Source of the DNA: a virus
Virus record (IMG/VR): IMGVR_UViG_3300050147_000032
Reading direction: 5' to 3' (one strand)
Length of the DNA stretch: 64,000 nucleotides
Shown: one piece after another, positions 15,437 through 53,632 of the stretch
Layout: every line of letters starts with the position of its first letter
How positions within the stretch are numbered: the first letter of the stretch is position 1
Translations under genes and position numbers: made by a program
The notes under the pieces: model-generated
What the model saw: the letters and a program-made list of their open reading frames with translations, nothing else
Told to the model about the DNA's origin: nothing
Databases searched by the model: none

Positions 15437-15543
15437 GCGTCGTTAGCTCAGTTGGTAGAGCATCGGACTTACATCAAGTGCAGAGAAATACTGCACTTTA
15501 GTTAATCCGCAGGTCGCTGGTTCAAGTCCAGCACGACGCACCA
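15437..15543 (+). tRNA. tRNA-Lys(UUU)-like gene with a 31-nt insertion in the anticodon loop
   Basis: 107 nt minus 31 gives a canonical 76 nt. Body closely resembles enterobacterial tRNA-Lys. Removing 15471-15501 gives loop CT-TTT-AA. Confidence 0.8.
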
Positions 15544-20500: not shown

Positions 20501-20577
20501 CGGTAGTTAGCTCAGTTGGTTAGAGCGGAGAACTCTAAATTCTTTGGTCATCGGTTCGAATCCGATACTACCGGCCA
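20501..20577 (+). tRNA. Amber suppressor tRNA (anticodon CUA)
   Basis: CGGTAGT/ACTACCG, canonical D and T arms, GAGAA-CTCTAAA-TTCTT, G73, CCA. Confidence 0.9.
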
Positions 20578-24670: not shown

Positions 24671-24974
24671 TTAATTTTTACAACAAACATCTGAAAAGAG
24701 AATATTATGATTACTGTTATTGACAAAACAATCCAAGAAGGTCTGAAATTCGAAGATCTGGTGCATAAACGTGCTTACAAGATCATCAGTGGAAAAAATA
24801 AGCTGGATCAAATCCACATCGGTTCTGTTGGAATTTTTCTTGAGCATAAGTTGCATACATTTGGTCATATTGTGTTTTTGAGCTGGACACAATCAGATGG
24901 TTCTGAATATGATATGCGATTTGTTGAAGTTGACATTGACATCATTGTGAAGAATAAGTAAAATTGATTTTAAT

Positions 24975-25060
24975 GCGGGGTTAGCTCAGTTGGTAGAGCA
25001 CTTGCCTTCCAAGCAAGAGGCGAATAGTTTACATCGGTTCGAGCCCGATACTCCGCTCCA
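24975..25060 (+). tRNA. tRNA-Gly(UCC) with a long variable region
   Basis: CTTGC-CTTCCAA-GCAAG, U73, CCA; 15-nt variable region. Confidence 0.9.
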
Positions 25061-25070
25061 ATTACAATTG

Positions 25071-25156
25071 GCATAGGTAGCCAAGTGGTCGAAGGCGATG
25101 GATTGCAAATCCAATGAAGAAATTCCACGTCAGTTCGAATCTGACCCTATGCTCCA
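25071..25156 (+). tRNA. tRNA-Cys(GCA) with a long variable region
   Basis: TGGA-TTGCAAA-TCCA, U73, CCA; 14-nt variable region. Confidence 0.9.
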
Positions 25157-25276
25157 TTGAAAGGTTTGATATGCAAGATTTTATCCACATTTTGAATACG
25201 TTGAATTATCCAGGAGCAATTGCAATCGTTGGTATTGCTGCAGCTGTTGCATATATTTCACGTTCTTAAAAAATGA

Positions 25277-25474
25277 TTTTAGTAGGAAGTTGGCTTAAAG
25301 GCAGCCATCTTTTAAAGAGTGAAGCGAAGTACCTAAGTGCTACAGAGATCAAACAGAAATACTAAGCGCATAGTTTTGTTTGATAGGGAGCGAGGACGCG
25401 ATACGGATAGTGACGAAGCACCCCGTAACTGGTAAGGCAGGCTCCTTCTTTGGCGTAGCAGCACACTACTAAAA
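25277..25474 (+). ncRNA. 23S rRNA L11-binding domain (GTPase-associated centre) mimic with an internal insertion
   Basis: AGTAG-GAAGTTGGCTTAAAGGCAGCCATCTTTTAAAGA...GCGTAGCAGCACA-CTACT aligns with E. coli 23S about 1051-1108 as recalled; closed by TTTTAGTAG/CTACTAAAA. Confidence 0.8.
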
Positions 25475-25478
25475 AGCG

Positions 25479-25664
25479 TATGTTTAGAGTTGATAGGGAC
25501 GGCAATCCCGTTGACAGTTGATACACGCAAAATCAGAATTCGTTGCCGCTGAATATTTGATATTTGCTACTTTGTCATCCAGTGGTTAGGATGGTCCCGC
25601 TGACAGGGAAGAACCTTGGTTCGAATCCAAGCAAAGTCATTAGGTGTTATCAACTCTAAACATA
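25479..25664 (+). ncRNA. Long-stem-closed bipartite RNA containing a degenerate tRNA (25568-25639)
   Basis: 17-bp perfect inverted repeat TATGTTTAGAGTTGATA/TATCAACTCTAAACATA; inner tRNA-like domain with loop GCTGACA. Confidence 0.7.
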
Positions 25665-25724
25665 TGATGCAACTCGGCGAGCAGCCCCTGAAAAGGGCAT
25701 CTGGTTCGATTCCAGAATTATATG
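25662..25724 (+). tRNA. Miniaturised 63-nt tRNA-Phe(GAA)-like gene
   Basis: ATATGAT/ATTATAT, GCCC-CTGAAAA-GGGC, TCTGG-TTCGATT-CCAGA; reduced D-arm, almost no variable loop, no CCA. Confidence 0.6.
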
Positions 25725-25749
25725 TTTCAAATTATGACTTCGTGTCATA

Positions 25750-25804
25750 TAGGATGATTTCAGCAACCTACTCTACAACCGTTAATTGTAAAAAGGTCAT
25801 CCTG
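25750..25804 (+). ncRNA. AGGAT/CAGCAA element copy 4, displaying an Asn(GUU)-like anticodon loop
   Basis: AGGATGA/TCATCCT stem; TACAA-CCGTTAA-TTGTA hairpin. Confidence 0.75.
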
Positions 25805-25889
25805 TTAAGCTAAAAATGCTTTACTTTTCTTTGAACTTTGTTATAATCAGATTTGGAATTTTCCAAATTAACCTTTGAAAGAGAATATT

Positions 25890-26597
25890 ATGATCGATTT
25901 TTCGGCTCTGAGCCTTGCTTCTATTGATTTCGCTGCTGTTGCCAAGATTATTGGCATCGATATCATGCTAGGTGGTGATAATGCTGTTGTCATTGCACTA
26001 GCATGTTCTGCTTTGCCTGTTGCTATGCGAAACAAAGGCATGTTCTTTGGCACTGCTGGTGCTGTAGTTATGCGAGGACTATTTCTTGCTATTGCAGGTC
26101 TTGTTCTTGGTATTCCTTTTGTCAAAGTCATCGCCGGTGCTTGGTTGTTCTGGATTGGCTATAGTCTACTGATTGCAAATGATGGAGATGAACACAACAT
26201 CACTCCAGCAGACAGTTTGCTTGGTGCAATCAAAACGATTATCATTGCAGATATCATGATGAGCGTTGATAATGTGATGGCAGTTGCATCTGCTGCAGAA
26301 TCTACTGGTGCTCATAGCACATTGTATGCAGTTGCTGGTATTTTGTTCAGTGTTCCTATCATTGTTCTTGGTGCTCAAGTTATCATGAAATTGATGGATC
26401 GATTCCCTGTCATTGTCTGGGGCGGAGCTGGTCTGCTGGGCTGGGTTGGTGCTGAGATGATTATTTCTGATCCCAATATGCACAACATCGTAAGTGATGA
26501 TCAACATCTGATTTTCAAGATTCTTGGTTTTGTTGTTGTGATTATTGCAGCTCTTGCTCAGAAAAAGTTCACCACAAAGCACGAAACTGCTGTATAA
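25890..26597 (+). CDS. terC: TerC/YjbE-family membrane protein
   Basis: IDIMLGGDNAVVIALAC, IIIADIMMSVDNVMAVA. Confidence 0.92.
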   Translation: MIDFSALSLASIDFAAVAKIIGIDIMLGGDNAVVIALACSALPVAMRNKGMFFGTAGAVVMRGLFLAIAGLVLGIPFVKVIAGAWLFWIGYSLLIANDGDEHNITPADSLLGAIKTIIIADIMMSVDNVMAVASAAESTGAHSTLYAVAGILFSVPIIVLGAQVIMKLMDRFPVIVWGGAGLLGWVGAEMIISDPNMHNIVSDDQHLIFKILGFVVVIIAALAQKKFTTKHETAV

Positions 26598-26621
26598 TTT
26601 GATTTTAACCGAAAAGGAAAT

Positions 26622-27263
26622 ATGATGACTAATCTTGTTTTGAATCTGACTAAGCCCAATGAAACTCCTGCTAAGTTGCAGTTGAATCTGAAGAAAGGTG
26701 AATCTTTTGTTGTTAAGCTATCCTGGGATGGCTCGACTGACTTGGATCTACATGCTATCTATTGTGTGAATACTGGTGCCGGAGCGAAGGTCAGTGCTCT
26801 CGAAGACATCTTGTCCACATATAATCTGAAGCGAACAATCCAAGGCCAAGAAGTTGGTACTTTGCCGAAGAATCCAGATGGTTCGTTCGAAATTCGTAAT
26901 GGTGCTTTGAAGCATTCTGCTGATGCTCTTGATGGTACTGCCGTTGGTGATGACGAATGGATTCGAATCGATCCATCGAAGCTGGTCGCATCAATTGGTT
27001 CGAATATCGAAATTCCTCTGATCGCCATGATCCACCCGCAATCTGCTGGTTTGAAGTTTGCTAATGTACAGAATGCGAAGGTCACTATCTTGAATGCAGA
27101 TAACGCAGTTTTGATGACAGCAACTCTTTCTTCGATGTTCGGTGAATTTGTTGGTGTTCAAATGGGATCCATTATCATCGAATCTGATGGGAAGTCTACA
27201 TTTGCTCAAGTTGGTGTCGGGTTCAATCTCGATTTCAATGGCGTTATCGCTAACTTTGCATAA
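26622..27263 (+). CDS. TerD-family stress protein
   Basis: LNLKKGE, LSWDGSTDLDLHA, HSAD...GDDEWIRID; adjacent to terC. Confidence 0.75.
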   Translation: MMTNLVLNLTKPNETPAKLQLNLKKGESFVVKLSWDGSTDLDLHAIYCVNTGAGAKVSALEDILSTYNLKRTIQGQEVGTLPKNPDGSFEIRNGALKHSADALDGTAVGDDEWIRIDPSKLVASIGSNIEIPLIAMIHPQSAGLKFANVQNAKVTILNADNAVLMTATLSSMFGEFVGVQMGSIIIESDGKSTFAQVGVGFNLDFNGVIANFA

Positions 27264-27272
27264 GGAATAATC

Positions 27273-28025
27273 ATGGCTCTGACACTTAATCTCCAAAAAT
27301 CCGAACAAACCTTGAAGCTGTGCCTTCAAAAGAAGGGTATTGCTACTCCACCTCCTGTTGACTTTGCTGTTCTTCTGGATGTATCTGGTTCATTTGAAGA
27401 TGAACATGCAAGCGGTATCACAAATGATCTGATTACTCGTCTTGTTCCATGGGGCATGACTTTTGATCCAGATCGAAAGCTTGATGTAATTACATTCAGT
27501 GATGGACAAGGACATGTCGAAAATGTTGGTTCCATCACCGAAGATAACTATCCTGGTTTTGTCAAGAAGTATGTAATCAACAAGGTTCGTGGCTGGTGCG
27601 GTGGTACAGACTACTCGTATGCTATCGAAGAAGCACTTCGTGTATTTGGTTGGCTATCGAGTGATTCTATCACAGAAAAGGCATCTGGATTCTTTGGTTC
27701 TCTGTTCGGTAAGAAGACTCCAGCAAAGGTAGAAGCACAACGACTTGCTGTTGCTTTCATTATCACAGATGGTCAGAACTATGACCAAACTCGTACTGAA
27801 CAAATCTTCCATGATTCAGAACTGCGTGGTGACAAAGTCTACTTCATGTTCATTGGTGTATCGAACAATCCAACAGAATTCCGTTTTGTTGATCAAATGG
27901 CCGATATGTTTTCGAATGTTGGTATTGTGAAGGTTCCGAACATTCGTAAATTTGTCGAGCAAACTGATGAACAATTGAATGAACAGTTTATCACCGATGA
28001 ATTTGTGAATTGGTTGAAGAATTGA
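27273..28025 (+). CDS. Ter-associated vWA domain protein
   Basis: MIDAS motif LLDVSGSF, GGTDY, FIITDG, FMFIGV. Confidence 0.85.
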   Translation: MALTLNLQKSEQTLKLCLQKKGIATPPPVDFAVLLDVSGSFEDEHASGITNDLITRLVPWGMTFDPDRKLDVITFSDGQGHVENVGSITEDNYPGFVKKYVINKVRGWCGGTDYSYAIEEALRVFGWLSSDSITEKASGFFGSLFGKKTPAKVEAQRLAVAFIITDGQNYDQTRTEQIFHDSELRGDKVYFMFIGVSNNPTEFRFVDQMADMFSNVGIVKVPNIRKFVEQTDEQLNEQFITDEFVNWLKN

Positions 28026-51265: not shown

Positions 51266-53632
51266 ATGAAACAACATACAATCGTTCTACTCGTTGGTCC
51301 TTCTTGTTGCGGAAAGACAACGTTTGCCAAGAAGATCCAAGCAGCAATCGTCGAAGAAAATCTGAAATGTGTGATCATTTCATCAGATGACATTCGACGT
51401 GATCTGCTTTGCGACAATGAGATTCATAAGCTCGATGCATCGATGTCTTCTGTATCAGCCGAAGCCCATCATATCCTGAAGACAAAGGTTGATTTTCACT
51501 CGAAGTTTCCTATCAATACGGATGTCATCATCGTTGATACGACTGGATTGTCTGCTCATTTCCGTGAAGAAATGATCGAGATTGCAAAGAAGAATCATTA
51601 CAACATTGATATGTTCGTGTTTGATTATCCTCGTTCTGATCTCGAAGGATTTGTTGCTTTGAATCACGGCGACATGTATGTTACTGGTCATCAAATGAAA
51701 CGCCTCCGCGAAGAGGTTATGCCCAATCTAAATCGCAAGGCATATGGAATGGTTCAAATTTTCAAGAAGCCAGAAGATGCTGTTGCTTGGATTCCTACTA
51801 TCGAGAATCGTGATGTTGTCATTCAAGCAAATGAAGATGATAAGATCGTCGTCATCGGAGATGTGCATGAATGTGTCGATGAGCTAGTTGCTCTGTTTGA
51901 TAAAATTCCAACTAACGTCAATCATATCGCTCTTCTAGGGGATATCGTTGATAAAGCTGAAGACACAGAACGTCTGATCAACTTGATTTTTGATATGACA
52001 AAGAGTCAGAAGAATTACGATTTCTTCTTGATTCGAGGAAATCATGAACGATATGTTTACAAGCGACTGAAGGGGATTCTTGCTCCCAACGAAAAGCTTG
52101 ACAATGAATTCTTCCAATCATTCAAAGTGCTTTCTGTAGATGAAAATCTTCGAGAAAAGTTCTTCTTCCTGTATGAAAATGTGATGGTGGATCATCTGAA
52201 GTTTATTCGTGGACGAGAAAAAGCTATTATTCTGACTCATGCTCCTTGCTCCAATGTTCATCTGGGAAAGCATGACAGCAAGTCATCTGGTAAACAGATC
52301 AACTTCTACTTCACTTCTCGTGATCAAGAAAAGATGCTCGATGAACTGAAATTCATCGAAGATGAAGCAGATAGCAATCATCCTTGGCATCTGTTTGGTC
52401 ATGTTGCTCATGATGGTCGTCAACCTAAGATGATCAAGAACAAGATCTTCATGGATACTGGCTGTGTTCATGGCGGGAAACTGTCTGCCGCAGTATTCAA
52501 TGGTCGTCATGTTGATTTCATCACAGTTGATTCCAAACGTGAAGTTCATGGTTTGATTTCTCTGGAAAAGAAAGAAACGAAACTGGAGAAGATTGTTCGT
52601 TCTGATATCAATCTTTCCGAAGAAGATCAACGATCGGTAGATAAAATTGCAAAGAGCGGAGCGAAGTTCATTTCCGGGACAATGGCTCCTGCTCCTTCAA
52701 AAGATATGGATATCGAGTCTCTGGAAGCTGCTGTTTCATATTTCAAGGAACGAGTGACAGATGTTGTAATTCAACCGAAATATATGGGATCTCGTTGTCA
52801 ATTTTATCTCTACAAGGATCGAGCAAAGAACTTTGCAACTTCCAGGAATGGATTCAAAATCAAGATTGATAAACTTCAAGAATACATGGATGTGTATCAA
52901 ACATGGATCGAGAAGTCTATCAAATTTGAAGATGAGTTGATTTTGGATGGAGAACTTCTTCCTTGGTCAGCACTCGGTAAAGGTCTGATTGATGGTGCTT
53001 TTGGTCAATATCAAAGCGCTATCAGTTGGACTCTAGATAACCTGAGTCTCGATGAAACTTTTGCTGGATTTGATATTTGCAAGAAACTGAACATCACAGA
53101 GCAACAAAACAATCTTGTTCAGTTTCAGGAACAGCTTGCTCTATATGGCCAAGATCGTCATCTGGAATATAAAGCATTCGACATCCTTTCTATTGATGGG
53201 AAGATTGTTGCTGGTAAGCAAAATGATACGAGCTTCTTTGTGTTGAATTCAGATAAGACTTTGAAGATTAATCTGAACGAACCAGATGCACTTTTCCGTA
53301 TTCAGAATTTCTTTGATGTGCTTGTTTTTGATAAGGGATTTGAAGGTATTGTGATCAAGCCTGTTTCTTATGATTCGAGCAAGAATTGTGTTCCTTACAT
53401 GAAAGTCCGCAACAAAGAATATCTGCGTCTTGTGTATGGTTTCAACTATGCATCGCGCTTGTCCGAACTATGCAAGCAAAAGAATACTCGTGGAAAGATG
53501 AACTTGTCGATTGATGAATTTGAACTTGGTCAGGCTATTCTTGCTGAGAAGGATGATGTAAAGCGTAAGCATCTGATTTCTGCGATGTTCGGTAAGATCG
53601 CTAAAGAACGCACTTTGGATCCACGTCTGTGA
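51266..53632 (+). CDS. pnkp: Polynucleotide kinase-phosphatase Pnkp (kinase, phosphoesterase and ligase domains)
   Basis: GPSCCGKT, SSDDIR; GDVHE, GDIVD, RGNHE, FGH, DTGCVHGGKLSA; ISGTMAP, KYMGSR, DGELLPWS, EGIVIKP, KVRNKEYLRLVYG; ends DPRL. Confidence 0.9.
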   Translation: MKQHTIVLLVGPSCCGKTTFAKKIQAAIVEENLKCVIISSDDIRRDLLCDNEIHKLDASMSSVSAEAHHILKTKVDFHSKFPINTDVIIVDTTGLSAHFREEMIEIAKKNHYNIDMFVFDYPRSDLEGFVALNHGDMYVTGHQMKRLREEVMPNLNRKAYGMVQIFKKPEDAVAWIPTIENRDVVIQANEDDKIVVIGDVHECVDELVALFDKIPTNVNHIALLGDIVDKAEDTERLINLIFDMTKSQKNYDFFLIRGNHERYVYKRLKGILAPNEKLDNEFFQSFKVLSVDENLREKFFFLYENVMVDHLKFIRGREKAIILTHAPCSNVHLGKHDSKSSGKQINFYFTSRDQEKMLDELKFIEDEADSNHPWHLFGHVAHDGRQPKMIKNKIFMDTGCVHGGKLSAAVFNGRHVDFITVDSKREVHGLISLEKKETKLEKIVRSDINLSEEDQRSVDKIAKSGAKFISGTMAPAPSKDMDIESLEAAVSYFKERVTDVVIQPKYMGSRCQFYLYKDRAKNFATSRNGFKIKIDKLQEYMDVYQTWIEKSIKFEDELILDGELLPWSALGKGLIDGAFGQYQSAISWTLDNLSLDETFAGFDICKKLNITEQQNNLVQFQEQLALYGQDRHLEYKAFDILSIDGKIVAGKQNDTSFFVLNSDKTLKINLNEPDALFRIQNFFDVLVFDKGFEGIVIKPVSYDSSKNCVPYMKVRNKEYLRLVYGFNYASRLSELCKQKNTRGKMNLSIDEFELGQAILAEKDDVKRKHLISAMFGKIAKERTLDPRL

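Follow-up and report, generated by a model that had tools for sequence, protein, structure and literature searches.

The window analysed here is a stretch of 64,000 nucleotides (nt) of viral DNA, IMG/VR record IMGVR_UViG_3300050147_000032. On its plus strand, positions 25278-25474 hold an element that comparative analysis identifies as a phage-borne structural mimic of the L11-binding GTPase-associated centre (GAC) of 23S ribosomal RNA (rRNA). The GAC, a 58-nt domain of 23S rRNA (helices H42-H44, E. coli positions 1051-1108), is the binding site of uL11 and thiostrepton and the place where the translation GTPases make contact. The locus most likely encodes a stable non-coding RNA of about 197 nt, and the searches described below place it in a large RNA family that is specific to phages.

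The extent of the whole RNA (25278-25474) was set by the family covariance model R1, and its parts follow each other on the plus strand in the order of the rRNA domain. The 5' strand of a closing helix (25278-25285, paired with 25466-25473) is the counterpart of the top of H42 (E. coli ~1048-1055). It is followed by a copy of H43 (25287-25311, E. coli 1057-1081) with the A1067 loop; the letters of the window at 1067, 1068 and 1070 are A, A and G. The junction UUAAA (1082-1086) and then G1087, A1088, G1089 and U1090 occupy 25312-25320. An extra arm stands between the rRNA positions 1090 and 1091 (25321-25448) and is closed by a basal helix, P_ins, formed by 25321-25324 with 25445-25448. The linker UUUG (25449-25452), placed by an alignment of 103 family members, connects this arm to a copy of H44 (25453-25465, E. 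coli 1091-1103) with the A1095 loop GUAGCA. The 3' strand of the closing helix (25466-25474) ends the element; like the H44 copy, it was placed by alignment and covariation.

The letters at 25277-25474 were those given in an initial annotation of this DNA, and the paired ends TTTTAGTAG and CTACTAAAA were found at the place it had indicated: they form a 9-nt terminal repeat, in which TTTTAGTAG at 25277-25285 pairs with CTACTAAAA at 25466-25474. The two pieces resembling rRNA are GGAAGTTGGCTTAAAGGCAGCCATCTTTTAAAGAGTG at 25285-25321 and GGCGTAGCAGCACAC at 25452-25466. The insert between them, put at about 135 nt in that annotation, measured 128 nt plus the UUUG linker.

A 37-nt bacterial consensus covering 23S positions 1055-1091 (H43 and junction), GGANGTTGGCTTAGAAGCAGCCATCNTTTAAAGAGTG, was taken from the Rfam model of the large-subunit (LSU) rRNA. 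It had one match in the window, with 35 of 37 positions identical and 2 mismatches, and none in 100 dinucleotide shuffles. Infernal aligned 25283-25335 to positions 1094-1147 of LSU_rRNA_bacteria with 16.7 bits (E-value 0.0075). This score is below the gathering score of 50 because the insert splits the domain. Together with the conservation of the fold across the family, the consensus match and the Infernal alignment bear out the proposal that the element mimics the L11-binding GAC. Colinearity to 23S rRNA spans only 54 model positions, whereas a real fragment, such as that in the Paenibacillus phage described below, continues into 23S sequence.

The window was scanned against Rfam 15 at gathering scores, and the region 25150-25900 and 10 relatives of the element were scanned by E-value. 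No further rRNA domain or Rfam family was found in 25150-25900, nor elsewhere in the window except for tRNAs (transfer RNAs), in agreement with the initial annotation, which had recognised no other rRNA domain nearby. In the 10 relatives, the scans returned weak LSU matches on the GAC part and tRNAs, and nothing else. The z-score of the single-sequence fold was only -1.33. Thermodynamics alone would not flag the element, and the case must therefore rest on comparison.

A phage RNA family that keeps the GAC fold

A blastn search with a 211-nt region against 50,697 phage records returned matches in two pieces, a 5' GAC half and a 3' half separated by a variable middle, which fell in unannotated gaps of unrelated cultured phages. 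Such matches were present in the Pseudomonas phages Astolliot, pf16, Milchi and UNO-G1W1, Aeromonas phage 4_4572, Xanthomonas phage XaC1, Vibrio phage 2.275.O, Acinetobacter phage ME3, Cronobacter phage GAP32 and Ralstonia phage RSP15. With a second query, matches that were single, short and confined to the 5' H43 stretch were obtained in Pectobacterium phage CBB, Serratia phage BF, Yersinia phages fHe-Yen9-03 and fHe-Yen9-04, several Erwinia jumbo phages, and the Xanthomonas phages XbC2 and XacN1. Matches in small records labelled as phages and in Paenibacillus phage Pd_22F were set aside as real contiguous 23S rRNA. The Pd_22F record (L010, MZ092003.1, at ~83,976) holds more than 500 nt of unannotated, contiguous, genuine 23S sequence, either captured host DNA or an assembly contaminant, and several "phage" records of 2-7 kb are likewise rRNA.

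An exact scan of IMG/VR for the 3' motif of the family, CTTTGGCGTANNAGCRCAC, found at least 119 viral contigs; IMG/VR contigs and cultured phages together give a family of more than 150 members. The covariance model R1 was built from 35 short members, the window sequence being one of them. It matched the window with 122.9 bits (E-value 1.7e-32) over its full length (1-175), and this was the sole match in the window and in the 96,962-bp contig. Members outside the building set scored 58-126 bits. Nearly all scanned viral loci matched with E-values below 1e-10, and at full length except for a few cut by the end of the locus. Exactly one copy was found in each of five complete phage genomes, including members with long inserts that were not in the building set. 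The large family, like the fixed position of the fourth arm and the tie to tRNA arrays that are described below, had escaped the initial annotation. That annotation had also named the concern that the element might be a decaying captured fragment without conservation in relatives, which is removed by the conservation across many unrelated phages.

In prokaryote genomes (596 Gb), the 3' motif had 93 matches, as compared to about 139 expected by chance. About 20-24 of the 93 were real elements, mostly on contigs of metagenome-assembled genomes, and the family is thus essentially viral. Four contigs carried two GAC-mimic copies with different inserts: L084 (3846-4335), where the copies stand in tandem about 14 nt apart, L106 (1120-1233 and 2175-2362), L121 (5077-5784) and L139 (2702-2893 and 4762-5054). 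For PA5oct, a relative of GAP32, four non-coding RNAs defined by RNA-seq were reported (PMC7318152); R1 had no match in this phage.

We aligned 35 relatives on the structure derived from rRNA, extended by the basal helix of the insert. Pairing was possible in 93.6% of the cells, and compensatory changes occurred in 15 of 22 base pairs. The covariation score was 0.569 versus 0.143 in shuffles (none of 500 reached the observed value), and controls with slid partners stayed at or below 0.163. The closing helix is unlike rRNA in sequence and nevertheless paired, as the initial annotation had remarked: seven of its eight pairs showed compensatory changes among the 35 relatives, and G1055:C1104 was invariant. 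In H43, the pairs 1057:1081 and 1058:1080 covaried in the same set, and the upper pair 1064:1074 switched from C-G to A-U in further members. The junction pair 1082:1086 was found as U-A, C-G and A-U. The H44 pairs G1091:C1100, C1092:G1099 and G1087:C1102 were kept.

Covariation also extended to the triple 1072·(1092-1099). Among 97 elements, 91 had C·(C-G), as does the window, six had U·(U-A) and none had a mixed combination; one exception, L136, was found later. This is the covariation known for the base triple of the rRNA domain. It indicates that the family retains the tertiary fold in addition to the helices. Compensatory changes in H42, in H43, at 1082:1086 and in the triple confirm the selection on structure that had been suggested from the closing helix. 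By these comparisons, the core of the family (closing helix, H43-like arm, 1082-1086 turn and H44-like arm) reproduces both the secondary and the tertiary architecture of the GAC.

Among the 103 aligned members, G1059, U1060, G1063, G1071, A1085, A1088, G1089, U1090, G1091, G1093, U1094, A1098 and C1100 were invariant, and position 1095 was A in 100. The four linker positions were U in 103, U in 103, U in 102 and G in 102 of the 103 members, but many members were found via the 3' motif, so that its letters, including UUUG, are partly fixed by ascertainment. The 26 members found via an insert motif gave the same picture of conservation, with UUUG mostly kept.

The extra arm was present in all members exactly between 1090 and 1091 and was followed by UUUG, which turns the three-way junction of the rRNA into a four-way junction. 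All four pairs of P_ins covaried. The arm ranged from about 25 nt to about 400 nt across the family, and in the minimal members of 94 nt it is a plain hairpin of 6 base pairs (bp). In the subclass to which the window belongs, the arm ends in a conserved module, GCACCCCG-GNRA/UAAC-CGGUAAGGC, which was nearly invariant in 16 subclass members; in the window it reads GCACCCCG-UAAC-UGGUAAGGC (25418-25438, plus strand). In the RNAalifold structure it is an irregular hairpin, capped by a GNRA-like tetraloop and interrupted by an internal loop, ACC/UAAG. An exact scan for the module returned 36 viral loci, in 32 of which it lay inside a GAC-mimic element. Two more covarying pairs, 25412-25413 with 25443-25444, stack on the basal helix.

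Two helices had been proposed within the insert of the window. The helix ATCAAACAGAA/TTTTGTTTGAT appeared in the minimum-free-energy fold, and the closest relative, L065, has a hairpin of different sequence at the same place. The helix GGAGC/GCTCC (25387-25391 with 25441-25445) was also present in the minimum-free-energy fold of the single sequence but found no support by comparison, because it competes with the covarying pairs 25412-25413:25443-25444. L130, L016, L085, L067, L104, L054, L082 and L121 have a second insertion, a hairpin of 20-70 nt that follows the 3' strand of H43 (~1078) and precedes the UUUAAAG junction.

Two further readings were rejected. A 30-amino-acid open reading frame (ORF) that overlaps the element at 25273-25365 is not credible as coding sequence, since its region contains many indels among the relatives. 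Also dismissed was a role at the level of DNA, as phage attachment site or homing target, because the compensatory changes act at the RNA level.

Proposed function of the RNA and alternative explanations

The window has 17 tRNA genes, all on the plus strand, and the tRNA-Cys gene that ends at 25156 is nearest to the element. Among 78 distinct elements, 51 had tRNAs within 3 kb; 307 of these tRNAs were on the same strand as the element and none on the opposite strand. In 31 of the 78, a tRNA was located within 100 nt, often a few bases from the closing helix. This proximity and strand agreement suggest that the element is co-transcribed with the neighbouring tRNAs and may be released by tRNA-processing enzymes. 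No protein family was linked to the element in more than three loci when all ORFs within 3 kb of the 78 elements were compared with each other, and no gene for L11 or L12 was found in the contig. The RNA would thus appear to work with host components and not with a linked phage protein.

The phage RNA has the same helices and the same junction letters as the GAC of 23S rRNA, with U1060, A1085, A1088, G1093, U1094 and A1098 invariant, and 1057:1081, 1058:1080, 1082:1086 and C1072·(C1092-G1099), the last changing to U·(U-A), covary alike. It differs from the rRNA domain in being free-standing, with a length of ~94-500 nt and a location in phage tRNA arrays, in a closing helix without rRNA sequence, in an A1067 that is not fixed, and in the 5' strand of H44 (1087-1092), continuous in the three-way junction of the rRNA and here interrupted by the arm and UUUG. 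Leaders of ribosomal protein mRNAs are likewise non-ribosomal RNAs that copy a protein-binding site of rRNA. The rplJ (L10) leader (E. coli rplJ leader, Rfam L10_leader, RF00557) imitates the same H42-H44 region. These leaders bind a ribosomal protein, which for the phage RNA is proposed, and they are cis-acting 5' untranslated regions of their own operon that copy binding determinants rather than letters; the phage element, in contrast, has no ribosomal protein gene or conserved ORF downstream. No leader model of Rfam matched the element or the 10 relatives.

The T4 species 1 and 2 RNAs (rnaC, rnaD), GOLLD and ROOL share the setting and the presumed co-transcription and processing with tRNAs, but they have no relation in sequence or structure to the phage GAC mimic, and we know of none among them that imitates an rRNA domain. 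GOLLD and ROOL are both in Rfam, and neither had a match in the window or in the 10 relatives. The proposed logic, a small RNA that imitates the ligand of a host protein, is that of decoys such as 6S RNA (an open promoter), adenovirus VA RNA (for PKR) and the viral tRNA-like structures, although the target and the fold differ and the decoy action of the phage RNA is deduced. Full-text literature searches revealed no description of such an RNA. The GAC-mimic family is new to Rfam 15 and to the searchable literature, and as far as can be told, it represents a new kind of RNA, a functional centre of the ribosome copied in free-standing form and widespread among viruses.

We consider it somewhat more probable than an even chance that the RNA is a free-standing decoy of the ribosomal site that binds free uL11. 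The wider proposal, that big phages of many bacterial phyla make a working copy of the uL11/GAC domain and use it in trans to capture uL11 or docking factors, stands at about even odds. The RNA would be transcribed together with the adjacent tRNAs and excised from the joint transcript by tRNA-processing enzymes, so that the infected cell would contain the uL11-binding site in free form. The RNA could bind uL11 off the ribosome, and perhaps factors that recognise the uL11-RNA surface. Acting as a decoy or sponge, it might leave ribosomes short of uL11 and unable to activate RelA, or it might titrate a host docking factor. Isolated RNA comprising 1051-1108 folds autonomously and binds L11 and thiostrepton tightly, and L11 is dispensable for growth but required for the activation of RelA. 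The variable arm, which the minimal members reduce to a plain hairpin, probably serves as an appendage for structure or stability.

Several points weigh against the decoy. A1067 is nearly universal in bacterial rRNA and is central to the contacts with thiostrepton, the N-domain of uL11 and EF-G. The 103 members had A at this position in 82 cases, G in 16, C in three and U in two, and by this comparison not every ribosomal contact is preserved. In rRNA, the turn 1088-1090 is packed into the core of the fold; the fourth arm leaves the domain exactly there and might alter or block uL11 binding. A pure decoy model also leaves unexplained why the arm is obligatory and the UUUG linker invariant. To act as a sponge for an abundant ribosomal protein, the RNA would itself have to be very abundant. 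No RNA run was among the sequencing runs listed for the stretch.

The RNA could instead be a bait or competitive inhibitor for attackers of the GAC, such as a host toxin of the abortive-infection or contact-dependent type that cleaves or ADP-ribosylates H43/H44, or compounds of the thiopeptide type, so that the ribosomes needed by the phage are spared. We regard this as unlikely. Enzymes directed at the site do exist, as the Photorhabdus Rhs toxin Tre23 ADP-ribosylates helix 44 of the GAC in 23S rRNA. The location is shared with phage tRNA arrays, which are thought to take the place of tRNAs that host anticodon nucleases have hit, or to out-compete them, and the window encodes a Pnkp-type RNA repair enzyme (51266-53632), an investment against RNA damage. 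The hypervariable arm and the scattered distribution would also fit an arms race. However, we know of no anti-phage system aimed at the GAC, a decoy of this type must out-compete tens of thousands of ribosomes, and the conservation across phages of very different host phyla favours a universal partner over a sporadic defence toxin.

Still less likely in our judgement is a free-standing imitation of the factor-binding site, in which the RNA, with or without uL11, would bind EF-G, IF2, RF3 or RelA and so modulate translation or the stringent response. Most members retain the two loops that face the factors, at 1067 and at 1095, the latter with the A1095 conservation given above, and EF-G binds the thiostrepton and sarcin-ricin domains also as isolated oligonucleotides. 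The affinity of the factors for isolated domains is weak, though, and A1067 varies. A copy of the sarcin-ricin loop (SRL), AGUACGAGAGGACC, was absent from 112 inserts when up to two substitutions were allowed, and no SRL copy was found anywhere in about 2 Mb of family loci. Conversely, R1 matched none of 12 viral loci that have the exact SRL motif. The stretch of the window nearest to the SRL is AGTGACGAAGCACC, which is three edits off, and the middle letters of this region vary freely in relatives.

A lower probability again was given to a uL11-loaded ribonucleoprotein, in which the GAC copy would serve as a handle for stability or localisation and the variable arm would carry the activity, for example as a guide, a scaffold or a sponge for another RNA or protein. 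Distinct conserved arm subclasses are in line with such a division: the GCACCCCG-GNRA-CGGUAAGGC module of the window occurs in the 32 elements mentioned above, another arm class, CAGGGGAAGGAC...GACCCTTAGAG, is found in the elements of GAP32, ME3 and RSP15, and L084, L106, L121 and L139 each carry two different copies. Against it, the arm of the 94-nt members is only the 6-bp hairpin, and the parts shared by all members are the GAC copy, the basal helix and the linker UUUG.

That the element is captured and decaying host 23S rDNA, an assembly chimera or a pair of rRNA exons around a mobile intron is extremely improbable and contradicted by comparison across the family. In its favour, the letters of H43 hardly differ from real rRNA, and some "phage" records do hold real 23S (Pd_22F and the records of 2-7 kb). 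Against it, there is no flanking rRNA sequence, the closing helix is unrelated to rRNA in sequence and yet covaries, the identical split architecture recurs at the same position in more than 150 unrelated phage contigs, the stretch is present in full in 24 leaf-litter metagenome runs, no group I or group II intron or ribozyme model matched the window or the 10 relatives, and inserts go down to about 25 nt.

If the wider proposal is true, phages would provide the first case of viral mimicry of an rRNA domain, and their tRNA arrays would carry a counter-measure of a new class. Translation control of the host would be reprogrammed, for example by silencing the RelA-dependent stringent response, or attacks on the site would be disarmed. 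Binding of uL11 or of factors that use the site would amount to an undescribed mode of host take-over, by an RNA look-alike of the factor-binding centre, and part of the non-tRNA content of phage tRNA clusters, so far unexplained, would thereby gain a function. Suppression of the stringent response by phages at the level of uL11 becomes testable. The family also provides a natural series of more than 150 variants of the classic 58-nt L11/thiostrepton model RNA, with a tolerated fourth arm. Even with another mechanism, it represents a widespread, strongly conserved and unannotated RNA gene in cultured phages, where it is open to immediate study.

Neighbouring genes and RNA features

Upstream of the element, a promoter-like site, TTGACA-17-TAAAAT (24936-24964, plus strand), precedes the tRNA-Gly gene. 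It agrees with 11 of 12 consensus positions, and this consensus match makes it a candidate start of the tRNA and non-coding RNA unit that holds the element. Genes for tRNA-Gly(UCC) and tRNA-Cys(GCA) follow at 24975-25156 (plus strand). Both are 86 nt in length and have long extra arms that are unusual for these identities. Jumbo phages of Yersinia, Erwinia and Serratia (about 355 kb) have tRNA-Gly genes that share about 91% identity with this tRNA-Gly. Between tRNA-Cys and the element, a 32-codon ORF (25171-25269, plus strand) with a Shine-Dalgarno-like AAAGG upstream would encode the hydrophobic peptide MQDFIHILNTLNYPGAIAIVGIAAAVAYISRS.

Directly 3' of the element lies a stem-capped tRNA-like RNA (25479-25664, plus strand), in which a terminal stem of 17 bp encloses a hairpin domain and a tRNA-like cloverleaf. 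The cloverleaf (25568-25639) scored 36.3 bits with the Rfam tRNA model, has the odd anticodon loop GCUGACA and was not called by ARAGORN. A T-arm-like hairpin, CTGGTTCGATTCCAG, is located at ~25700-25716, and the next promoter-like site is at 25820-25847.

Elsewhere in the window, a tRNA with the anticodon CUA at 20501-20577 (plus strand), labelled "tRNA-Pyl" by ARAGORN, is a possible amber suppressor. A 104-nt Rfam tRNA match at 15437-15540 (plus strand, 62.2 bits) is absent from the ARAGORN list and may hold an intron or a long insertion. The repair enzyme encoded at 51266-53632 (plus strand) is a protein of 788 amino acids that combines P-loop kinase, metallophosphatase and PNKP-type ligase domains; this Pnkp-like architecture suggests that the phage counters RNA-cleaving toxins of the host. 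The three genes 3' of the RNA cluster (25890-28025, plus strand) have TerC, TerD and vWA-TerF-like domains, which are typical of loci of the tellurite-resistance type.

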